Positions 10,079 through 20,343 of a DNA stretch of 64,000 bases are shown here, in pieces. The notes beneath the pieces are model-generated. The model had not been told where the DNA came from. It was given only the letters and a program-made list of their open reading frames with translations, and searched no databases. Source of the stretch: Candidatus Zixiibacteriota bacterium (GTDB taxonomy: Bacteria > Zixibacteria > MSB-5A5 > GN15 > FEB-12). Position 1 is the first letter of the stretch, and each line of letters begins with the position of its first letter. The DNA lies in assembly GCA_020346225.1 (NCBI GenBank), contig CP070777.1:303976-367975 (forward strand), given 5' to 3'. The position numbers were made by a program, and so were the translations under genes.

Positions 10079-12967
10079 TTACCAGGCCGCCGCGGAAATC
10101 TCATCGGCCCTGATTACATACACATCCCATCCGCCGCTTCCGTAAGATTGCGTGCCGCCGGCGATGGCGAAACTGTTATCCGAGGTCAGAGCGACCGAAT
10201 AACCGATGTCGGCTTCGGCCCCGCCCATAAGGTAGTACCAGAGCAGATAGCCGTAGCTGTCGGTCTTGACCACGTATACATCGGACGGTTCGGTGTCGCC
10301 GCTGTGGGAAAAGCCTGTCATCAAGAACCCATCATCCGACGCCGGGGCCAGTGAGTTGGCCTCATCCAGCCACGGCCCGCCCAGATCTGTCCGCTGCCAC
10401 ACCTGGCTGCCACCGCCGTCGGTTTTGATCAGGAAGGCATCCTCCGGAGTGCTCCCGGCCATCACCAGCGAACCGTCCTCCAGCGCCACGAGCGAATAGG
10501 CGCAGTCATCGCCGGTGGTGAGAGCAAACACCTCATCCCAGACGAGAGTGCCGCTACCGTCGACCTTGACCAGCCAGACATCCCTGGCAACAGCTCCAAA
10601 CGACCTTGTATAACCGGCGAGGGCGTACCCGCCGTCGGTAGTCTTCACCACGGTGTAAGCCCGGTCGGAACCGCTCCCGCCGTATGTCCGGGTCCACAGC
10701 GTGTCCCCGTTTTCATCGGTCTTGATGAGATAGAAATCGCATATGCCGCCGCTCCAGGAGCGCGCCCTTCCGCCAATGATATACCCGCCATCGGCAGTCT
10801 GAAGAACGCTCCTGCCGCGGTCGTCGAGGCTCCCGCCGAAGGTTTTCTCCCAGGTCAGGGTCCCGTTGGCGTCGGTTTTAACCAGATAAACGTCGCCTTC
10901 ACCTTCGCCTGACGAGAACGTGTAACCGACCACGGCAAAGCCGCCATCCTCGGTGGCTATGACCGAGTGCCCGCAGTCATCGGCCGCTCCGCCGAACGTC
11001 TCTTCCCACACGACGCTCCCGGATGCGTTGAGCTTGGCAAGGTATACGTCGCTGCCGCCCGCGCCGGAGGACTCGGTTGAACCGGCAATGACCAGCCCGC
11101 CATCACCGGTCGGGACTACTGAATATCCAATATCGTCGCTGGCCCCGCCCGCGTCGTATTCGGCGGTCACGAGCGTAACCGGGAAACAGTTGCCTTCGGC
11201 TATCATGGTTTCGTCACGGAACACTTCGGCCGAATAATCGGCTACGTTTACGTCGTATACACCGCCGGTAATGTCGACCGCACCGGCCACGCTGGAATAA
11301 AGGCTCCAGGAGCAGGACGGTTCAGACGCGACCTGGCCGTGGAGCTGAAGATTGCGCTCAGCCTCCAACCTTGCCGCTGAATATGAATAAGGTGTGAACT
11401 CTATGATCGGCTTGATTATGACCCTGGCCCGCATGTCGCCGAATTCGGCCCATGCTGACGGGCGGGGAACATCGTCGCCGGTGTGACCACCCTCCGGCGC
11501 CCAGCTGTTGTCCTGGTATTGGCAGCCGATCCATATGTTGCTGGAGCTCTCCGCGCCGAAGGCGACCTCGCCGCTTACCTCGGATTCCAGTTCCACCGTC
11601 GCCACGAATCTGAGGCTGGCTTCTAACCACACTGGAAACCAGTCCAGAAGCTGAATCCCGACCCCTGAGAAGCTCGCCAGCTCCAGCGGCGGCGTTTGCT
11701 GAAGAGTCACGGGCCCGTCGGTTTCCACGGTGAAATCACAGTTGACCGACAGGTCCCCTGTGGTCCGAGCCACAAACTCCGTCAGGCTGCCGCCGTCGAA
11801 AACTGCATTGCTTAGAACGTGCGGCTCGAATGTCATCTCACCCTGCGGAATCGACGCCGACACGGTCGCGGAGCCGAGCGTCCCTGAGTATAGGCTCACA
11901 TCCTCGAATCTTATTCGGCCCTCCTCGATATATACGCCATCCGGGACGTTCACCGTCGTCGTGGTTGATTTGTCGGCGCCAAACGGCATAATGAGAAACG
12001 TCAGTGATGTATGGCAGGTGCCGGTGGTGATGGCCTCGACGAGTGAGGCTGGTCCCGTCTCGACCGAGACCTGGCCGGCGGAGTATGTCGATGAAACGAC
12101 TTTCCTCAGGTAACCTGACGGCTCGGTGCCAACCACTATCCTGCCGGGTTCCAACATTGGCTGGCGCCCGCTGAAACTGAAGGTGTAAGTGGAACCGGTG
12201 GCGCCTATTAATGAGACACCCTCCAGCTCGTCAATCACAATCACGCCCTCGCCAAGGAGTACCCCTGTCTCGGTGACCGCCGGGCCTATCGCATAGGAGC
12301 CAGCAGGTTCGCTCAGAACGCTGTCACGGTAATCCTCAAACCGGAAATAATACTGATGCTGACCGTTGCCCAATGCTGTCTCGTAGCGATAAAGGCTTCC
12401 TGTCAGGGGTTCTCCCGATACGTGGGTCATGGCATGGGCCTCGCCGTTGACGAAAACCTCTGCCTTGGCCGGTTGATTTCCGGTCGGATCACGGAACGTC
12501 ACCTCGTATGTAAAGGTCTCGCCGTCATTGCCGCTTCCCGGAGTCACCTTGCCGGCGTTCAGAAAAGCCGTGTGGACGGTGACAAGGGCCAGCGTGTCCT
12601 CCGCCGAGGCCCGTCCGTCCGACACCACCACCACGATACTGACGGTGGCGCTGGTGTCCGGCGCCATCCATTCCACGCAGCTGGAATCATCGATGTTGAA
12701 CGAGCCGACGTTGGCCGACCACGTGGACGTAAGCGGGTCGTTGTCGGCGTCAGTCGCCGTGCACGTCAGAGTCAGCGGCTGCCCGGCCGGAATACGGCTG
12801 TACAGCTCCGGGGGCAAGACATAAGACCCCTGTTTAACTTCTATCCCTGAAATGACAGGCGGGTTATTGGGCGCGACCGGGTTGTCATCCTTGCCGCAGC
12901 TAAGAATCAGCGCTGCGACAGACAGGCAGATTGCCGCCGTAATCAGCCGATGATGCCGAAACTTCAT
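10079..12967 (-). CDS. 962-aa surface lipoprotein: Ig/PKD-like N-terminal domains, unknown central region, C-terminal seven-repeat beta-propeller
   Basis: Signal peptide with lipobox (ALILSC). DADNDPL Ig/PKD-like segment. Seven ~50-aa repeats W..(T)(F/Y)GG...D.G.SV..T.DGG....G.T.S.G.G..D(V/F)(Y/W)L(V/I)K(T/V)D..G... in the last ~360 aa. SD GGGAGG before the ATG. Confidence 0.8.
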   Translation of the reverse strand: MKFRHHRLITAAICLSVAALILSCGKDDNPVAPNNPPVISGIEVKQGSYVLPPELYSRIPAGQPLTLTCTATDADNDPLTSTWSANVGSFNIDDSSCVEWMAPDTSATVSIVVVVSDGRASAEDTLALVTVHTAFLNAGKVTPGSGNDGETFTYEVTFRDPTGNQPAKAEVFVNGEAHAMTHVSGEPLTGSLYRYETALGNGQHQYYFRFEDYRDSVLSEPAGSYAIGPAVTETGVLLGEGVIVIDELEGVSLIGATGSTYTFSFSGRQPMLEPGRIVVGTEPSGYLRKVVSSTYSAGQVSVETGPASLVEAITTGTCHTSLTFLIMPFGADKSTTTTVNVPDGVYIEEGRIRFEDVSLYSGTLGSATVSASIPQGEMTFEPHVLSNAVFDGGSLTEFVARTTGDLSVNCDFTVETDGPVTLQQTPPLELASFSGVGIQLLDWFPVWLEASLRFVATVELESEVSGEVAFGAESSSNIWIGCQYQDNSWAPEGGHTGDDVPRPSAWAEFGDMRARVIIKPIIEFTPYSYSAARLEAERNLQLHGQVASEPSCSWSLYSSVAGAVDITGGVYDVNVADYSAEVFRDETMIAEGNCFPVTLVTAEYDAGGASDDIGYSVVPTGDGGLVIAGSTESSGAGGSDVYLAKLNASGSVVWEETFGGAADDCGHSVIATEDGGFAVVGYTFSSGEGEGDVYLVKTDANGTLTWEKTFGGSLDDRGRSVLQTADGGYIIGGRARSWSGGICDFYLIKTDENGDTLWTRTYGGSGSDRAYTVVKTTDGGYALAGYTRSFGAVARDVWLVKVDGSGTLVWDEVFALTTGDDCAYSLVALEDGSLVMAGSTPEDAFLIKTDGGGSQVWQRTDLGGPWLDEANSLAPASDDGFLMTGFSHSGDTEPSDVYVVKTDSYGYLLWYYLMGGAEADIGYSVALTSDNSFAIAGGTQSYGSGGWDVYVIRADEISAAAW

Positions 12968-13132: not shown

Positions 13133-14350
13133 CTATTCCTGCTGCACCCCGCTGTCGTCCGTTTTGATCAGCCAGACGTCCTTCATATAGCTGGTGCCAT
13201 AGGAACCGATAGCGCCGGTGATTACATAGCCGCCGTCGGGGGCACATGCGATGTCATTGCCGTAGTCCGACATGCTTCCGCCGTATGTCTGTTGCCACTG
13301 CATGTTTCCACCGGCATCAGTCTTAATCAGAAAGGCATCCGGGGCCTCTTCTCCCGGAATGGTTGTATAGCCGGTTATAGCATAGCCGCCATCGGGGCAG
13401 CAGACAACGGACTCGCCGACATTGTTCTCTTCGTCGCCATAAACCTGTCGCCAGACGACATAACCGTCGGCGTCGAACCTGGTCAGGCATATGTCATACC
13501 CGTAACCCGTGGAGCCGCCGCAAAGACCTGCGACGACGAATCCGTCATCAGAGGTACACTTGATCGAAACGCCGAAATCACGATCGGTGTCGCTCATCCT
13601 TTCCCACAGAAGATTCCCCTCGTGGTCGGTTTTCAGCGTAAGCAGGCACAGCCTGTCATCGCTCCACACGTGAGCGGTGCCCGTGATGATAAACCCACCA
13701 TCGGGCGCAACGGTTACATCGTGGCATGTATAGGAGGCGCTGTCACCTCCCCTATAAAATTCCCACCACGGAACGTCACCCGAGAGGTCCATCCCGATGA
13801 GACTGGCTTTGTAGCCAACGGTGTCATCGTAGCAACTTCCTCCGATCACCAGCCCGTCCTCCCCGGTTAACACCACCGTATAATGGCTGCCCCAGCCGCT
13901 TTCAAACAGTCTCTTCCACACAGTTTTCCCGGATGCATCGGTTCTGATCACCCAGATGTACGGCACCGGCTGGTCGTCAACCGACTTCGATTTACCCGCA
14001 ATCACGAACCCGCCGTCGGATGTCTGAATCAGCGTGTGTCCCTCATCGCCCGCCGCTCCGCCGAAGGTACGCTGCCACTCGAGGTTGCCGGCGGCGTCAA
14101 TCTTCAGCAGATAAACATCGCTGTCCCCCGCGCCGAATGAGCTGGTTGCCCCGACCACGGCATAGCCGCCGTCATCTGTGGTGATTACGGATTCGCCCGT
14201 ATCGTCCTCGGCCCCGCCGTAGATCCATCTGGCATCGTACACCGGCTGGAAACTAACCGGACTTTTGCGCTCGTTGTAGCATCCGGCCACCCACAATAAT
14301 ATTAGGACGGTCACGCCCCCCAGAACTCTGAAGTAAAGCTTAGAATTCAA
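13133..14350 (-). CDS. 405-aa lipoprotein made almost entirely of the same seven-repeat beta-propeller unit
   Basis: Lipobox LWVAGC. Seven tandem repeats of the motif seen in 10079..12967 (for example WQRTFGGAAGDEGHTLIQTSDGGFVIAG, DVWLIKTDDSG). Confidence 0.8.
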   Translation of the reverse strand: MNSKLYFRVLGGVTVLILLWVAGCYNERKSPVSFQPVYDARWIYGGAEDDTGESVITTDDGGYAVVGATSSFGAGDSDVYLLKIDAAGNLEWQRTFGGAAGDEGHTLIQTSDGGFVIAGKSKSVDDQPVPYIWVIRTDASGKTVWKRLFESGWGSHYTVVLTGEDGLVIGGSCYDDTVGYKASLIGMDLSGDVPWWEFYRGGDSASYTCHDVTVAPDGGFIITGTAHVWSDDRLCLLTLKTDHEGNLLWERMSDTDRDFGVSIKCTSDDGFVVAGLCGGSTGYGYDICLTRFDADGYVVWRQVYGDEENNVGESVVCCPDGGYAITGYTTIPGEEAPDAFLIKTDAGGNMQWQQTYGGSMSDYGNDIACAPDGGYVITGAIGSYGTSYMKDVWLIKTDDSGVQQE

Positions 14351-14423: not shown

Positions 14424-14452
14424 AATGTAGCCACAAAACGACTTTCTGTCAA
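14424..14452 (-). promoter_or_regulatory. Sigma70-type promoter for the 405-aa lipoprotein gene
   Basis: On the minus strand, TTGACA (14452-14447), 17-nt spacer, TACATT (14429-14424). About 70 nt upstream of the ATG at 14350. Confidence 0.45.
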
Positions 14453-14572
14453 AGACTTTCGGCTGGAGTGTCCTCGGCAACCGTCCCACAAGGGCATTCC
14501 TCTATTAATGGTGCACAAGCCCACGGAAACCGGCGGCGGGTGATTTTTTTTCGCAGATTGCTAAAAAAAGTT

Positions 14573-14601
14573 TTGACAGAGCCGAAATGATGGCTTATAG
14601 T
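14573..14601 (+). promoter_or_regulatory. Near-consensus sigma70-type promoter
   Basis: TTGACA (14573-14578), 17-nt spacer, TATAGT (14596-14601). Confidence 0.55.
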
Positions 14602-14607
14602 TGAAAC

Positions 14608-14811
14608 AACCTCTAACCGCGTGCGTAGAGTAAGTTTGTGATTTACTAAGCTCAACAGGAAAGTTATCAGCTGTATGAATAAGGCTATCAATACAATTCA
14701 GGTAGTCCCTCTTATGGGAACATGCGGCGGAGGTAGTGCATCTCGATTATGACGCCACTGGCATATAAAGACTTTACCCGCCGCAACTGAAAGGTTCGGC
14801 GGGTTTTTTTT
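14608..14811 (+). promoter_or_regulatory. ~200-nt structured leader or small RNA with alternative pairings (attenuator-like) upstream of the ABC exporter
   Basis: Lies between the promoter and an intrinsic terminator and is AT-rich relative to its flanks. Seg1 14609-14625 pairs with seg2 14721-14737. TGCGGCGG 14723-14730 can instead pair with CCGCCGCA 14778-14785, the terminator left arm. Confidence 0.5.
14777..14811 (+). terminator. Intrinsic terminator
   Basis: CCCGCCG (14777-14783) pairs with CGGCGGG (14797-14803). Inner AAC/GTT extension. Followed by eight T (14804-14811). Confidence 0.7.
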
Positions 14812-14871
14812 GGTAGCGTCCTGTCCGGACCTGCGGCAAAGAATGTAAACCGTTAAGGCAAGGACAAGAAA

Positions 14872-16668
14872 ATGTCGGCAGACTTATTTGAACACGAACA
14901 GATAAACGAACAGGAAAAGCAGATCGGTTCACGCAAGGCATTCGCCCGGCTTCTGCCGCTTTTGAAAAGCCATGTTCGCGGCCTGCTGTTGTGCCTGTTT
15001 CTGCTGGCCGGCGCTACCGTTCTGTCACTGTACTGGCCGCTGCTTCTCAAGCGGGCTCTCGATGTAAACATAGCCAGCGGCGATGTGCGCGGTCTGTTGA
15101 CCACGGTGGCGGCCATCGGCCTCATTCAGGTGGTAACGATAGTGCTCCAGTACCTGATGCGCGTCAGGCTAGAAATCATTGGTCAGGACGTCATGCTCTC
15201 CCTGAAGCGCCGGCTGTTCCACCATATCCTGTCGCTGGACATTTCGTACTTTGACAAGAACCCGGTGGGACGCCTGATGGCGCGGGTAGAGTCCGACACC
15301 GAAGCCCTCCGCATGCTTTTCACCAATACGGCCGTTATGCTTGTGGGTGACGCTATCCTGGTGGCCGGCATCTACGGCGTCCTCTTTTATACCGAGTGGC
15401 GCCTGGCTCTGCCTTTGTTCTTCGGAGTACCGCTGATCGGCTTCATGGTCTGGGTCTTCCATAAGAAAACCACGCCGAGGTTTCTGGAAGTGCGCAAGAA
15501 AATGGCCGAAGTGACGGCGACCCTGACGGAGCTTCTGCATGGCATGTCCATTATCCAGATATTCCACCGGGGCGCCTATGCCCGGTACAAGGCGTTCAAG
15601 GCTAACCAGGCCAAGTTCAACGACGACGCTTACGTGAATATCAGCGTGGTGCTGTTTTTCAACGCCGTCTTCTTTCTCGAATATGTCAAGATCGGCCTGG
15701 TTCTGGTGGTCGGCCCCATTCTGGGCATTACTTACGGTGCGATTCTGATGTTCATAATATACATCTGGCGCTCTTTCGAGCCGATCTGGCGAACATCGGA
15801 GCAGCTCTCGACGCTCCAGAAAGCGGTGGCCGGCTCCAAGCGGATTTTCGCGCTGATGTCGCAGAAATCCCGGCTCCCGCAGCCGGCTCAGCCGCGTCGC
15901 TGGGACAGGCTCGAGAAGGGTATCCGCTTCGAGAATGTCTCGTTCTCGTACACCGGCGACGGCAACTATGCTCTGAAGGACGCTACCTTTGAGGTTCCCG
16001 TGGGCAAACGGGTCGCCCTGGTCGGCGTGACGGGCGGCGGCAAGACGACCGTGATATCACTGCTGCTTCGGCTCTATGACCCGCAGAAGGGGAAAATCAC
16101 GGTCGACGGCCTCGATATCCGCGACCTGGCCAGCGACCGGCTGCGTTCGCGGCTGGCCCTGGTGCTGCAGGATATAGTCCTGTTCCCGGGCGATGTCGAA
16201 TCGAACATCTCCTTGGAATCCGACGCCATCTCGCGGGAGGCCGTCATCCGGGCGGCGCAGACGGTGGAAGCCGACCGCTTTATCCGGCGGCTGTCTGGCG
16301 GTTACGGCACCGAGGTGTCCGAAAAAGGCGCTAATTTCAGCCGGGGGGAGAGGCAGCTTTTGTCGTTTGCCCGTGCCCTGGCCTACGACCCGGATGTGCT
16401 CATTCTCGACGAGGCCACCAGCTCGGTCGACCCCGAAACGGAGCGAACCATTCAGAACTCGCTCAAAAGGCTGATGGAGGGTCGCACCTCGCTGGTGATC
16501 GCGCACCGTCTTTCGACGATTCTCGATGCCGACCAGATCCTGGTGATCAGGCGGGGCGAGATTATCGAACGAGGTACGCATACCGAGTTGATCATGCAGG
16601 ATGGCTATTACTCGAAACTGTTCCACCTGCAGTTCAAGAATGCTAACGGAGTGACAACAAATGCTTGA
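14872..16668 (+). CDS. ABC exporter, fused permease/ATPase subunit 1 (catalytic Glu present, non-canonical signature)
   Basis: Six-TM type I exporter N-terminal half. Walker A GVTGGGKT. Signature FSRGERQ instead of LSGGQ. Walker B LILDEATS. H-loop AHRLS. Confidence 0.92.
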   Translation: MSADLFEHEQINEQEKQIGSRKAFARLLPLLKSHVRGLLLCLFLLAGATVLSLYWPLLLKRALDVNIASGDVRGLLTTVAAIGLIQVVTIVLQYLMRVRLEIIGQDVMLSLKRRLFHHILSLDISYFDKNPVGRLMARVESDTEALRMLFTNTAVMLVGDAILVAGIYGVLFYTEWRLALPLFFGVPLIGFMVWVFHKKTTPRFLEVRKKMAEVTATLTELLHGMSIIQIFHRGAYARYKAFKANQAKFNDDAYVNISVVLFFNAVFFLEYVKIGLVLVVGPILGITYGAILMFIIYIWRSFEPIWRTSEQLSTLQKAVAGSKRIFALMSQKSRLPQPAQPRRWDRLEKGIRFENVSFSYTGDGNYALKDATFEVPVGKRVALVGVTGGGKTTVISLLLRLYDPQKGKITVDGLDIRDLASDRLRSRLALVLQDIVLFPGDVESNISLESDAISREAVIRAAQTVEADRFIRRLSGGYGTEVSEKGANFSRGERQLLSFARALAYDPDVLILDEATSSVDPETERTIQNSLKRLMEGRTSLVIAHRLSTILDADQILVIRRGEIIERGTHTELIMQDGYYSKLFHLQFKNANGVTTNA

Positions 16669-18699: not shown

Positions 18700-20343
18700 A
18701 TGAAAAAGCATGCAACCGCCAGCACCTTGGGTCGATGGTCGTATTTGTTCGTCTTTGTCGTGACCCTGGGCCTGACCGCACTACAGTGTTCATCCGACAA
18801 CGGTGTTGAGCCGGTCTTGCCGGCCCTTTATGTCTGGCCTCAGACAATATCTGTCTCGGGGCTGGTGGACGGACCCGACCCCTCCCAGGTTCTGGTCAAA
18901 GTCGACTGCGATCCTCACTCGAATATCCGCTTCACCTTCTCCGAGGATTGTTCGTGGCTGAACCTGTCAAATCTTGAGGGCACCAGCGAAGGAGTAACCC
19001 GGGACAGCTTCTCGGTTCGCTTCGATATTGACAATTTGCCGGTGGGTACACATCTGGATTCGGTGACGGTCGCTTCCTCTGATGCCTGCGACTCACCCCA
19101 GTACGTGTACGTGAGCCTAACCATCAATCCCATCCCCCCCGAGCTCGATGTCTGGCCCCCGCATTTGTCTTTCGAGAACTCCGAAGAGGAGCAGCTGCTC
19201 GTTGATACCGTTTACGTGACATGCACCAGCGGCGAGATCATCAACTTCGACCTGGATCCATCGGTGGCCTGGCTGGATTTCTCCAAAACCTCCGGGGTGA
19301 CGCCGGACACGGTTGTTGTCAGCCTCGATCTCGAGGCAGCCCATGGAGGAGCCAGTGTCGATACATTCTTCGTTACGGCGGACAATGTTCTGAACTCGCC
19401 CGTGCCCGTTCCCTGCAGCCTCTGGATTCCGCCCTGGCAGTCACAGTCGTTGCCGCTGACTATTGACCTGACCGATATTACCTTCCTCGATGATACGCTC
19501 GGCTGGGCGGTCGGAATCGTTGAGGACGGCAATTCGCACTCGGGCTTTCTGTTCGGCTCGATTGACGGCGGTGAAAACTGGGATGGCCAGATATTGATGT
19601 GGTCCGATCCTAATGACAGTCTGGCCCTGGCCTCTGTCTGTACGGTGGGAGAGACGGTGTGGGCGGTCGGGGAGTCCGGGATGATATGGTTGAGCGAGGA
19701 CTACGGCGCCACCTGGCAGCAGCGCTCTACCGGTCTGGCCGATACGTTGGTGCACCTGTATGATATCTGCTTTGTTAATTCGCAGGTTGGCTGGATCGTC
19801 GGCCAGGAGGGGCTTATTTTAAAGACCGTCGACGGCGGCGATACCTGGCAACAGCAAACGAGTGGTGTCGTGTTCGACCTGATCGCGGTGGATTTCTGCA
19901 GTGAAGATCTGGGCATGGCGGTCGGCACTTATTTTAACGTGCTGGTCACCGATGACGGTGGTGCCACCTGGACGTCCGAGAATACCGGCACCGGGACGAA
20001 TGATTTCCGCGACATTTGCTACTTCGATCCCGGTAACGTCTGGATCGTAGGTAAGAACGGCACAATCGTCTATACCGTCGATGGTGGTGCCAGTTTCAAC
20101 ACCCAGACCTCGGGGCTCAACACCTGGCTGAGCTCGGTCACCTTCGTCAACGACTCCACCGGATGGATCTCGGGCCAGGCCGGTGTCATTCTGTATACTG
20201 TCGACGCCGGGGTCACCTGGATGGAACAGGAATCCAACACCGCCCAGTGGCTCAATAGTATCTTCTTCCTCGATGATGTGACCGGTTGGGCGGTTGGCAA
20301 CGCTAATACGATCAGGTTTACCGACTGCGGCGGAAATCCCTGA
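18700..20343 (+). CDS. Lipoprotein with two BACON-like Ig-fold domains and a BNR/Ycf48-like beta-propeller
   Basis: Lipobox LTALQC. Two ~100-aa all-beta modules ending in NSP/DSP..V.V.L. Six Asp-box-like repeats (DGGENW, DYGATW, DGGDTW, DGGATW, DGGASF, DAGVTW). Confidence 0.8.
   Translation: MKKHATASTLGRWSYLFVFVVTLGLTALQCSSDNGVEPVLPALYVWPQTISVSGLVDGPDPSQVLVKVDCDPHSNIRFTFSEDCSWLNLSNLEGTSEGVTRDSFSVRFDIDNLPVGTHLDSVTVASSDACDSPQYVYVSLTINPIPPELDVWPPHLSFENSEEEQLLVDTVYVTCTSGEIINFDLDPSVAWLDFSKTSGVTPDTVVVSLDLEAAHGGASVDTFFVTADNVLNSPVPVPCSLWIPPWQSQSLPLTIDLTDITFLDDTLGWAVGIVEDGNSHSGFLFGSIDGGENWDGQILMWSDPNDSLALASVCTVGETVWAVGESGMIWLSEDYGATWQQRSTGLADTLVHLYDICFVNSQVGWIVGQEGLILKTVDGGDTWQQQTSGVVFDLIAVDFCSEDLGMAVGTYFNVLVTDDGGATWTSENTGTGTNDFRDICYFDPGNVWIVGKNGTIVYTVDGGASFNTQTSGLNTWLSSVTFVNDSTGWISGQAGVILYTVDAGVTWMEQESNTAQWLNSIFFLDDVTGWAVGNANTIRFTDCGGNP

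Follow-up and report, generated by a model that had tools for sequence, protein, structure and literature searches.

A probable leader-peptide transcription attenuator upstream of a heterodimeric ABC exporter in Candidatus Zixiibacteriota

[quoted passage not shown] That transcription starts and terminates as described here and that the leader ORF is translated are predictions for this uncultivated organism. In the first half-transporter the Walker B-Glu is canonical (VLILDE) and the signature motif degenerate (FSRGE), and among bacterial solved chains TmrA, BmrD/YheH and TM_0288 are the closest to it. The second carries a degenerate Walker B (ILILDD) together with a canonical ISGGQ, and its closest bacterial solved chains are TmrB, BmrC/YheI and TM_0287. 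Both half-transporters show the features of the heterodimeric exporter class with one degenerate ATP site (TM287/288, BmrCD, TmrAB).

Table 1. Coordinates of the leader elements and exporter genes, numbered from the first nucleotide of the window.
Feature	Position	Strand	Details
T8 and A7 tracts, UP-element-like	14544..14569	+	just 5' of the -35 box; read from sequence
Promoter, sigma-70-type	14573..14601	+	TTGACA 14573-14578, 17-nt spacer, TATAGT 14596-14601; 11/12 consensus match
Segment 1, anti-antiterminator 5' strand (ACCUCU..CCGCGUG)	14609..14625	+	pairs with 14721-14734 in minimum-energy fold
Small 5' hairpin (AGUAAGUU / GAUUUACU)	14629..14647	+	minimum-energy fold; 74% paired in clade
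Leader-ORF RBS-like AGGAAAG	14657..14663	+	weak; 11-14 nt before ATG
Leader ORF, 25 codons + TGA, encodes MNKAINTIQVVPLMGTCGGGSASRL	14675..14752	+	open frame; conserved in orthologs
Two small hairpins inside ORF	14684..14718	+	just 5' of segment 2; minimum-energy fold
Segment 2	14721..14737	+	core 14723-14730 (UGCGGCGG, codons Cys-Gly-Gly) is the antiterminator 5' strand; flanks pair with segment 1
Segments 3 and 4, terminator hairpin	14776..14804	+	left arm 14776-14788 (bulged C14784), right arm 14793-14804
U-tract (T8) of intrinsic terminator	14804..14811	+	read from sequence
RBS (AAGGA) of first ABC gene	14860..14864	+	read from sequence; AAGGCAAGGACAAG conserved in clade
ABC half-transporter 1, 598 aa	14872..16668	+	Pfam ABC_membrane, ABC_tran; the regulated gene
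ABC half-transporter 2, 596 aa	16661..18451	+	Pfam; 8-nt overlap with gene 1

A preliminary description of this DNA had pointed to a near-consensus TTGACA-17-TATAGT promoter followed by a leader that is AT-rich relative to its flanks, and both observations held. The promoter was the best of six promoter-like sites in the 9 kb scanned (shuffled sequences gave 4.5 +/- 2.1), and the GC content over 14550-14750 was 0.38-0.44 compared to 0.55-0.66 in the flanking genes. A TTGACA-like box, a spacer of 16-17 nt and TAnnnT were present at the equivalent position in nearly all orthologs, with an A-run immediately 5' of TTGACA recurring in most orthologous leaders. The T8 and A7 tracts of the window resemble an UP element and may act as one. 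Transcription is predicted to start near A14608, inside a GAAAC motif that is conserved at the start of the leader and is followed by a second conserved motif, CGUAAG.

The distal end of the leader is formed by an intrinsic terminator, situated within the 5' leader and upstream of the regulated gene, with 60 nt separating its end from the ATG at 14872. In its stem CCCGCCG (14777-83) pairs with CGGCGGG (14797-14803), followed by the bulged C14784 and an AAC(T)/(G)GTT extension, and the hairpin alone has a predicted energy of -17.7 kcal/mol. Because the bulge splits the stem, a simple terminator scan did not detect the hairpin at 14776-14804; its T8 tract and its distance from the first ABC gene were nevertheless as previously described. 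Across 34 non-redundant leaders from related genomes, 90.9% of the cells were paired for segments 3 and 4 (3:4), with 11 double-change cells, rising to 97.5% in the clade of the window, and a run of at least 5 T was found in every ortholog.

The left arm of this terminator has a second potential partner. The core of segment 2, TGCGGCGG (14723-30), is exactly complementary to CCGCCGCA (14778-85), and thus a mutually exclusive antiterminator shares a strand with the terminator. In the 34 leaders 92.8% of the cells of this 2:3 pairing were paired, with 16 double-change cells, compared to 36-56% when the strands were slid against each other, and its covariation score was 0.272 versus 0.195 in shuffles, none of 500 of which reached it. 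The pair between columns 13 and 86 of 2:3 was particularly variable (GC 21, UA 4, AU 3, GU 3). Since the nucleotide in column 86 bulges out of the terminator and is unconstrained there, its covariation is explicable only by the antiterminator. Furthermore, the third positions of the two Gly codons carried only bases that preserve the 2:3 pairs. The 8-bp antiterminator of the preliminary description is exact in the window, and seven of its pairs are invariant in the window clade; the eighth, U14723-A14785, is specific to the window, its position forming a standard pair in only 2 of 10 clade leaders (U-A here and C-G in one other).

Segment 2 can in addition be sequestered by segment 1. The minimum-energy fold of 14608-14811 comprises this 1:2 helix (14609-14/14729-34 and 14617-23/14721-27) plus the terminator, at -62.4 kcal/mol and z = -3.0, a value equaled by 1 of 200 shuffles. 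All leaders contain a CCGC-containing equivalent of segment 1, and most of the per-locus minimum-energy folds listed had segment 2 in a long-range helix with an upstream strand that contains CCGC. Cognate 1:2 duplexes had a mean energy of -19.6 kcal/mol compared to -16.0 kcal/mol for non-cognate duplexes (p = 1e-6), and their energy was also below that of shuffled upstream regions (paired Wilcoxon p = 9e-9). Fixed-column covariation of 1:2, in contrast, was weak: the CCGC:GCGG core is nearly invariant and was 80% paired versus 77% in permuted alignments (109 of 2000 reached it), and for the outer helix the difference across the family was non-significant (63% versus 60%). Because the register varies among lineages, only the energy test and the within-clade counts carry weight for 1:2. 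Within the ten clade members the inner 7 bp are retained, with C-to-U wobble changes and one compensatory change. Thus, the energy tests, the fold and the inner helix of the clade support an anti-antiterminator that competes for segment 2. Of the 5+7 bp originally proposed for it, the inner seven are those kept in the clade; the outer helix is partly conserved, amounting to 3 bp in the window clade. A local alternative for segment 1, CTCTA 14611-15 with TAGAG 14626-30, is present as sequence and was rejected as a structure, being neither in the minimum-energy fold nor conserved. The two small hairpins just 5' of segment 2 are weakly conserved in the window clade, and across the leaders the region equivalent to 14684-14718 folded better than shuffles (mean z = -0.9, Wilcoxon p = 2e-5).

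The leader had been taken to be untranslated; it contains a conserved ORF of 25 codons that had been overlooked. Codons 17-19 of this ORF (Cys-Gly-Gly) constitute the antiterminator strand, and the interval of ~95 nt between segments 1 and 2, not recognised as a known aptamer in the preliminary description, is in fact the RBS and the 5' two-thirds of the ORF. Relative to the GGCGG of segment 2, this frame was open in 32 of 32 leaders, while the other two frames were open in 0 and 10; at matched composition, a frame would be open by chance with a probability of 0.23 per locus. The start codon was ATG in 30 of the 32 leaders, the length was 23-30 codons, and a GGAG-type RBS-like site was found 5-14 nt before the start in 31 of 32. 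In the window clade the ORF is exactly 25 codons long with identical start and stop columns in all ten members. If X denotes the codon directly preceding the conserved Gly-Gly, the stop codon lies 9 codons past X in 22 of 32 leaders, although the tail sequences differ. A short ORF with an RBS, overlapping a regulatory segment, has therefore been conserved as an ORF. Its peptide has not: diversity in the clade was 0.28, 0.28 and 0.30 by codon position, without codon periodicity and equal to the diversity of the untranslated flanks. The amino-acid sequence of the leader peptide is thus not under selection, and we rejected a functional peptide as the principal reading. Codon runs for a regulating amino acid were absent from the 34 leader peptides, and in the window peptide neither such a run nor a recognised arrest motif was found. 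We also rejected the Gly-Gly codons as an amino-acid-starvation sensor, as a ribosome stalled there would cover the antiterminator.

This arrangement was found at 46 of 46 orthologous ABC loci that have upstream sequence, in Zixibacteria and relatives; several hundred orthologs exist, with 665 proteins matching at E <= 1e-150. Model R1, built from the leaders, matched all 46 loci and gave a single match in the window (14713-14809, 74.9 bits) and no match with E below 0.1 at ABC paralog loci of 30-41% identity; within 260 nt upstream of the paralogs there were no terminators, although many of the genes matched at these loci may come second in their pair. Weak model matches ~5 kb downstream in L004, L011, L012 and L028 were discarded, the only one inspected (L011) corresponding to the 3' end of a BNR-repeat gene plus a terminator. 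Since the layout recurs at every orthologous locus and its pairings covary, it is beyond chance. Altogether, these data provide good support for an attenuator architecture upstream of the ABC exporter, and the 1:2 / 2:3 / 3:4 reading proposed from the single sequence is upheld by the related genomes, in which the terminator and antiterminator are conserved and covary.

We consider a ribosome-mediated, four-segment (leader-peptide) transcription attenuator controlling the heterodimeric ABC exporter to be the best reading of these data, with a probability of roughly 55%. Segments 1 and 3 are C-rich and segments 2 and 4 G-rich, and a transcript started near 14608 by the strong promoter could fold in alternative ways: 3:4 would form the terminator ahead of the first ABC gene, 2:3 would exclude 3:4, and 1:2 would withhold segment 2 from segment 3. 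The leader ORF starts inside the 1:2 loop, would be read through segment 2 and stops 25 nt before segment 3. We infer that it is translated, and the fold would then be set by the position of the ribosome on the ORF at the time when RNA polymerase makes segments 3 and 4. With a ribosome on segment 2 (P-site codons ~13-22), or with no ribosome, in which case 1:2 forms, segment 3 would be free to enter the terminator and the exporter would be off. A ribosome held in the early ORF would instead perturb 1:2 and let segment 2 capture segment 3, giving read-through into the exporter genes. Segment 1 overlaps the RBS in most relatives, where a ribosome held back in this way would directly cover segment 1. 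By analogy with bmrB-bmrCD of Bacillus subtilis, the signal is likely slowed or stalled translation, caused for example by ribosome-targeting antibiotics, and the ribosome reading the mini-gene would probably decide whether the exporter is made.

In the full leader of the window the terminated state is predicted at -62.4 kcal/mol versus -49.0 kcal/mol for the antiterminated state, and equilibrium ribosome masks on the full leader were uninformative, with the terminator dominating at almost every ribosome position. Any antitermination must therefore be kinetic, and the footprint of the ribosome was modelled instead on transcripts cut after segment 3. At that point the 1:2 and 2:3 states of the window are nearly balanced (-45.7 versus -42.3 kcal/mol) and can thus be tipped. 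In these models 2:3 was abolished at all loci with the P site over approximately codons X-3 to X+5, and in the window its probability, 0.06 without a ribosome, rose to ~0.6 once a ribosome occupied the first codons. In 19 of 32 leaders the distance from the end of the segment-1 strand to the ATG is 14 nt or less, and the strand thus overlaps the RBS there. It weighs against the main reading that the leader RBS of the window is weak and 11-14 nt from the ATG, and that 50 nt separate segment 1 of the window from the leader ATG, too far for an initiating ribosome to occupy that segment as it could in most relatives. Furthermore, 2:3 is favored over 1:2 in the models of most relatives even when no ribosome is present, and so segment 1 does not play the same role in all members of the family.

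The models also bear on the direction of the switch. With a footprint edge of -12 nt a ribosome at the stop codon permits 2:3 as well, which is compatible with the same attenuator operating by the opposite logic, efficient translation leading to read-through; we consider this unlikely. Here, a ribosome that keeps pace with the polymerase would dwell at the stop codon (14750) and cover the GAGGU flank of segment 2 but not the core at 14723-30, so that 1:2 would be blocked and 2:3 would form, while a lagging ribosome on segment 2, or none, would lead to termination. Production of the exporter would then follow translational capacity, or else a slow release of the peptide at the stop codon. The distance of exactly 9 codons from X to the stop codon in 22 of 32 leaders, and the common stop column in all ten clade members, would fit such an arrangement. 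With the -12 nt edge, a ribosome on the last 1-3 codons restored 2:3, whose probability in the window was ~0.7 at the penultimate codon compared to 0.06 without a ribosome, and reached 0.9 in most leaders with a 6-codon tail. However, the footprint edge is uncertain by several nucleotides, and in leaders with short tails (such as L005, L008 and L013, where the stop lies 5-6 codons after X) the terminating ribosome would be placed on the antiterminator core. Moreover, there is no obvious reason for a positive coupling of the exporter to translation, and the characterised precedent, bmrB, works in the contrary direction.

The position of the stop codon allows a related, doubtful variant, in which the leader responds not to slow translation in general but to what happens at its stop codon or within the exit tunnel, as a substrate-specific arrest-peptide switch resembling TnaC. 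With the stop 9 codons after X, as in 22 of 32 leaders, a ribosome terminating there would lie exactly at the 3' border of the antiterminator core, and the upper exit tunnel would contain the conserved x-Gly-Gly-(Arg)-Gly stretch. Inhibition of release by a small molecule, for instance the substrate of the exporter or a natural ribosome-targeting compound of the sediment, could then turn the exporter on.

Control by a trans-acting factor, be it a metabolite bound by a riboswitch or an RNA- or DNA-binding protein, with the small ORF being incidental, appears improbable. In its favor, the 5' leader has the conserved GAAAC and CGUAAG motifs, and in most leaders the stretch from the ORF stop to the terminator contains a hairpin (mean z = -1.1, p = 2e-6). 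In 11 of 47 leaders this hairpin corresponds to a TGTGA-N6-TCACA palindrome, perfect or nearly so, of the kind recognized by CRP/FNR-family regulators. This palindrome is missing from the window, however, and its 64 kb hold zero GTGA-N6-TCAC sites. The sequence that separates segment 1 from segment 2 diverges at the rate of the neutral flanks and lacks a conserved pocket-like core, while the start, RBS, frame and length of the ORF are conserved far beyond chance, which is unexpected of an incidental ORF. A search of the 64-kb window against Rfam 15, as suggested by the preliminary description, gave no match at the gathering score; at E <= 10 there were only terminator-driven sub-threshold matches, the best being STnc240 with 27.6 bits against a cutoff of 55. 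Thus, of the "attenuator or riboswitch" left open in that description, the conserved ORF favors an attenuator with a leader peptide, and the lack of an Rfam match speaks against a riboswitch.

It is very improbable that the leader is an independent small gene, as in bacteriocin operons, specifying an RNA of ~200 nt or a peptide of 25 residues (such as an exporter substrate or partner) from its own promoter and followed by a leaky terminator: the strong promoter of its own, the strong terminator and the fixed place directly upstream of the exporter would suit such a gene, but the peptide is without purifying selection, its sole invariant residues, Gly-Gly, are explained by base pairing down to the third codon positions, the covariation between segment 2 and the terminator left arm would serve no role in a simple structural gene, and no modification or immunity genes were identified nearby.

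The favored reading, a ribosome-mediated attenuator, has several known counterparts. The classical four-segment attenuators are the trp-type leaders of Escherichia coli, in which the leader ORF overlaps segment 1 and contains tandem codons for the regulating amino acid. The leader analyzed here shares with them the 1:2/2:3/3:4 logic, a leader ORF, an intrinsic terminator and, as proposed, a decision made by ribosome position. It differs in that the ORF overlaps segment 2, with segment 1 overlapping the RBS in most relatives, that a regulatory codon run is lacking and the Gly-Gly codons lie inside the antiterminator and are explained by pairing, and that the downstream genes encode an exporter rather than a biosynthetic pathway.

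A close counterpart is bmrB (yheJ) of B. subtilis, through which bmrCD is induced by ribosome-targeting antibiotics by means of a leader peptide with a terminator, an antiterminator and an anti-antiterminator (PMC4191407). Both systems combine a short upstream ORF, translated in the case of bmrB, and a heterodimeric ABC exporter with one degenerate ATP site with an intrinsic terminator that has an alternative antiterminator and an anti-antiterminator, and in both the ORF runs over the antiterminator strand. The exporter is itself related to BmrD/BmrC, although the order of the half-transporters is reversed compared to bmrCD, the BmrD-like one being first here. The bmrB ORF has 53 codons and all three structures, including the terminator, are within its coding region (PMC4191407), whereas the ORF of the window, with 25 codons, stops 25 nt short of the terminator. 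The leader is thus analogous to bmrB in its proposed mechanism but not a member of the bmrB leader family, its ORF stopping at 14752, before the terminator at 14776; the two organisms belong to different phyla, and homology of the leader sequences is not expected. The analogy to bmrB-bmrCD had been drawn before the ORF was seen, and it is apt because the intervening sequence turns out to be an RBS and a conserved 25-codon ORF running into segment 2. Antibiotic induction, demonstrated for bmrB, would be the corresponding behavior here.

Antibiotic-sensing leader peptides with defined arrest motifs and mapped polymerase pause sites are also known from B. subtilis yxjB (tylosin; PMC6851288) and vmlR (PMC9226507), where a short ORF, drug-dependent ribosome stalling and a leader terminator control a resistance determinant. 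The short leader ORF and leader terminator are common to the window, and drug-dependent stalling would be the presumed counterpart; in contrast to yxjB and vmlR, the window peptide has no recognised arrest motif, and it is without the Lys/Arg-x-Lys/Arg pattern found near the N-terminus of about 9 related leaders. In Streptococcus pneumoniae, a terminator, an antiterminator and an anti-antiterminator were predicted upstream of the heterodimeric ABC multidrug exporter patAB, and compensatory mutations demonstrated the role of the terminator, according to the parts of the report considered here (PMC4319486). The patAB leader is much shorter than that of the window, with 67 nt from the start site to patA, and those parts of the report mention no leader peptide (PMC4319486).

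The kind of control proposed here is already known, and what is added is its occurrence in the uncultivated phylum Zixibacteria. To our knowledge, no cis-regulatory RNAs have been described in Zixibacteria. If the reading is correct, leader-peptide attenuation of a bmrCD-like, multidrug-type exporter is not peculiar to Firmicutes but forms a well-conserved family in Zixibacteria and relatives, and suggests that these sediment bacteria sense translation stress, possibly natural antibiotics, and make the exporter in response. The ~200-nt element with its clear covariation signature could seed an Rfam family and improve the annotation of their metagenome-assembled genomes. Moreover, unlike in the classic trp and bmrB layouts, the RBS lies inside the anti-antiterminator and the antiterminator inside the ORF, which makes this layout useful for comparing the ways in which leaders read out the position of the ribosome.

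The near-consensus promoter of the preliminary description was recovered as the top-scoring of six promoter-like sites in the 9 kb scanned. The region from this promoter to ~14750 was AT-rich, as had been reported (GC 0.38-0.44 compared to 0.55-0.66 in the adjacent genes). It had also been called untranslated, a label that does not hold, since the leader carries a putative translated ORF, preceded by AGGAAAG, that was overlooked in the sequence-only reading. This ORF runs through segment 2, and its codons 17-19 (UGC GGC GGA) form the antiterminator strand. The intrinsic terminator had been identified correctly; its isolated hairpin had an energy of -17.7 kcal/mol (RNAfold), it ends 60 nt before the first ABC ATG (14872), and a simple terminator scanner overlooked it because of its bulge. 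UGCGGCGG (14723-14730) is the perfect complement of CCGCCGCA (14778-14785), exactly as proposed for the antiterminator. The minimum-energy fold of 14608-14811 (-62.4 kcal/mol, z = -3.0, equalled by 1 of 200 shuffles) contained both the long-range 1:2 helix and the terminator.

Features of the exporter leader and its surroundings in the window
Feature	Position	Strand	Remarks
405-aa gene	13133-14350	minus	no Pfam match
Divergent promoter-like site	14424-14452	minus	TTGACA-17-TACATT; 10/12; faces the 405-aa gene
Leader promoter	TTGACA 14573-14578, 17 nt, TATAGT 14596-14601	plus	11/12 match
Segment 1	14609-14625		pairs with segment 2 (1:2, anti-antiterminator)
Leader ORF	14675-14752	plus	ATG, 25 codons, TGA; encodes MNKAINTIQVVPLMGTCGGGSASRL
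Segment 2	14721-14737		pairs with segment 3 (2:3, antiterminator)
Terminator (segments 3 and 4)	arms 14776-14804	plus	3:4; CCCGCCG/CGGCGGG, bulged C14784, inner AAC(U)/(G)GUU extension, eight U
Beta-propeller gene	18700-20343		547 aa; BNR/Asp-box, YCF48-like; 250-nt gap after the ABC pair

Further elements flank the leader. Within 14527-14569, CCGGCGGCGGG-TGA-T8 (14530-14551) looks like a segment 4 with its U-tract, and no convincing complementary left arm was found for it; this T8 stretch and the A7 run at 14563-14569 may instead serve the leader promoter as an A/T tract resembling a UP element, and relatives likewise have a T-run and an A-run ahead of the -35 box. The 60 nt between terminator and ABC start (14812-14871) contain the clade-conserved GUCCG..CGG.., GUAAAC and AAGGCAAGGACAAG, and may constitute a second, translational control layer; here CUGCGGCA (14830-14837) duplicates the 5' portion of segment 2, and in transcripts that read through, it could pair with segment 3.

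The ABC genes share an 8-nt overlap. Gene 1 encodes VLILDE and a degenerate signature, FSRGE, and gene 2 encodes ILILDD, in which Asp replaces the catalytic Glu, and a canonical ISGGQ; their top bacterial solved relatives are TmrA/BmrD/TM288 and TmrB/BmrC/TM287, respectively. As a pair, the two products make up a heterodimeric exporter in which one ATP site is degenerate. An identical copy of ABC protein 1 is encoded in a metagenome-assembled genome that NCBI lists as 'Candidatus Zixiibacteriota', and orthologs of the protein (54-83% identity) all belong to Zixibacteria or closely binned relatives. Among the ortholog loci (L-numbers), L162 and L163 have minus-strand upstream genes of ~392-403 aa at the position of the window's 405-aa gene, and at L166 and L167 this position is occupied by a 966-aa gene that may correspond to the window's 962-aa gene (10079-12967). 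A 542-aa BNR/Asp-box, YCF48-like beta-propeller protein is likewise encoded behind the ABC pair in the distant locus L011 (7745-9373); the pair and the downstream beta-propeller gene are thus in conserved synteny.

We gathered 47 orthologous upstream regions, which yielded 34 non-redundant leaders. The order of parts was identical in all leaders compared: an A-tract and TTGACA-type promoter, a 5' region, a CCGC-containing segment 1, a GGAG-type ribosome-binding site and ATG, a short ORF containing GCGGCGGG, a stop codon, a small hairpin, and a CCCGCCGC...UUCGGCGGG-U(n) terminator lying 41-88 nt, in most cases ~60 nt, upstream of the ABC start. A covariance model spanning segment 2 through the terminator matched 46 of 46 ortholog loci with enough upstream sequence and had a single match in the window (14713-14809, 74.9 bits); upstream of ABC paralogs (30-41% identity) it found no match. 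In 11 of the 47 leaders, the hairpin between ORF stop and terminator is a perfect or near-perfect TGTGA-N6-TCACA palindrome (for example L014:3875-3890, L083, L092, L016, L018, L002, L003, L023, L081 and L089), located at -117 to -130 from the ABC ATG. It resembles the CRP/FNR type of binding site, and its left half-site contains the ORF's TGA stop. Other lineages have a hairpin of unrelated sequence in its place, and the window's 64 kb contain no GTGA-N6-TCAC site. The palindrome could act in the RNA, as a pause or nucleation hairpin, or in the DNA, as a regulator-binding site.

The covariation that the preliminary description had called for was present. In a MAFFT alignment of the 34 sequences (A1), the terminator was 90.9% paired with 11 double-change cells and the antiterminator 92.8% paired with 16, compared to 28-57% and 36-56%, respectively, when partner columns were slid. 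The antiterminator covariation score was 0.272 compared to 0.195 +/- 0.015 after shuffling, and was reached in 0 of 500 shuffles. Columns 13 and 86 paired as GC in 21 leaders, UA in 4, AU in 3 and GU in 3; column 86 is the nucleotide bulged from the terminator and lies outside its stem, and its covariation with segment 2 is therefore attributable to the antiterminator only. Triple changes were read straight off the sequences of L096 (CGUGGCGG / CCGCCACG, with the terminator right arm altered to match), the L004 clade (CUCGGCGG / CCGUCGAG) and L021 (CAGCGGG / CCCGUUG). In the window's clade (alignment A2; ten leaders, including eight extra members fetched), the terminator was 97.5% paired and seven antiterminator pairs were invariant, the eighth being U-A in the window and C-G in one other leader. 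We regard the attenuator architecture as secure, with little room for doubt.

Minimum-energy folds of transcripts from the start to segment 2 gave a long-range helix of two or three parts in most leaders, in which ACCUY..CCGC, often running on into the ribosome-binding site's GCGGAG, pairs with (UCCGC)GGCGG..GAGGU. Duplexes between upstream region and segment 2 averaged -19.6 kcal/mol for cognate compared to -16.0 kcal/mol for non-cognate pairs (Wilcoxon p = 1e-6), and cognate duplexes were stabler than those with shuffled upstream regions (p = 9e-9). In fixed columns, the two outermost pairs of the CCGC:GCGG core were 88-94% paired and nearly invariant; fixed-column covariation of the outer helix lacked significance across the family, the register of this helix differing from lineage to lineage. 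The window's 1:2 helix was 81.5% paired in A2. Of the 5+7 bp originally proposed, the inner seven were kept, five sequences showing C-to-U changes to wobble pairs and a single change being compensatory, and the outer five stood only in part, 3 bp being conserved in the clade. In 19 of 32 leaders, no more than 14 nt separate the end of segment 1 from the ATG, and the segment thus overlaps the ribosome-binding site in these; in the window's clade it lies at the extreme 5' end, ~50 nt upstream of the ATG. L023 (3733-3800) has two CCGC-containing copies, one at the 5' end, like the window (14609-14663), and one abutting the ribosome-binding site, like most other lineages, and resembles an evolutionary intermediate, as if a required anti-antiterminator strand were being relocated.

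The frame reading x-Gly-Gly across GGCGG was open over the ORF span in 32 of 32 leaders, compared to 0 and 10 for the other two frames and 23% of the time in composition-matched shuffles. An ATG start was present in 30 of the 32 and a ribosome-binding-like motif 5-14 nt upstream of the start in 31; the ORFs have 23-30 codons, and in 22 the stop falls nine codons after the codon directly before Gly-Gly, with differing tail sequences. In the window's clade, all ten ORFs have exactly 25 codons and begin and stop in the same columns, even though nucleotide divergence is ~30%. Codon positions 1/2/3 had diversities of 0.28/0.28/0.30, and the N-terminal 14 codons diverged like untranslated flanks (0.34 compared to 0.35). 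Thus, conservation extends to the frame and length and not to the peptide, the signature expected of an ORF that would matter through being translated. The invariant Gly-Gly is accounted for by base pairing, and the third positions of both Gly codons carry only bases that preserve 2:3 pairs. About nine leader peptides (L002, L014, L082, L018, L003, L020, L013, L027 and L007) start with M-x-(K/R)-x-(K/R/H), such as MIKNR, MSRNR, MSKNR and MTRNK, with Lys and Arg swapped at codons 3-5 via multi-nucleotide codon changes; this start is absent from the window ORF. It resembles '+x+', a macrolide arrest motif, and a stall there would put the ribosome over a segment 1 proximal to the ribosome-binding site.

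When the window transcript was cut after segment 3, its 1:2 and 2:3 states were close to balance (-45.7 and -42.3 kcal/mol, respectively); for the complete leader, the terminated fold was favored by 13 kcal/mol. Thus, antitermination must be decided kinetically, before segment 4 emerges, as in bmrB. Ribosome positions on the ORF were modelled as a masked 26-nt footprint, on transcripts whose 3' end lies after segment 3. A peptidyl site over about codons 13-22 abolished 2:3 in every leader. For the window, the modelled probability of 2:3 was 0.06 without a ribosome; placing one on the first codons gave ~0.6, and ribosomes around codon 11 and at the penultimate codon gave ~0.9 and ~0.7, respectively. 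L003, L007 and L096, three of the leaders with 1:2 dominant in the absence of a ribosome, shifted to 2:3 once a ribosome occupied the first few codons. We favor, with a probability of about 0.55, a model in which a ribosome over segment 2 while segments 3 and 4 emerge would cause termination, as would the lack of any ribosome, and a ribosome delayed in the early part of the ORF would permit antitermination and exporter expression, the signal likely being impaired translation. Rather unlikely, though the chief alternative, is the same attenuator operating in the opposite direction, with a ribosome dwelling at the conserved stop favoring 2:3; such a ribosome would cover segment 2 only where it pairs with segment 1. 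Control of the switch by a factor or ligand is less likely still; the Rfam search envisaged in the preliminary description matched the leader to no family, and thus to no known riboswitch. An independent small gene is highly improbable for an ORF conserved in frame and length and not in peptide.

Comparative evidence thus supports the four-segment interpretation and sharpens it to a leader-peptide attenuator, apparently of an already known kind of mechanism. We know of no regulatory RNAs described from this phylum, and a known kind of attenuator is now seen in Zixibacteria. In the experimentally characterised bmrB-bmrCD system, the leader has to be translated, and antibiotics that target the 50S subunit induce read-through (PMC4191407), in agreement with the model of an early-held ribosome. 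The initial analogy to bmrCD is apt in that the leader would work like bmrB, yet it falls outside the bmrB family because ORF length and terminator placement differ. A trp-type amino-acid attenuator was ruled out, as the leader ORF lacks a regulatory codon run. In its mode of action the leader would resemble classic four-segment attenuators. Among related precedents are patAB, another attenuator (PMC4319486), the yxjB leader peptide (PMC6851288) and vmlR (PMC9226507).
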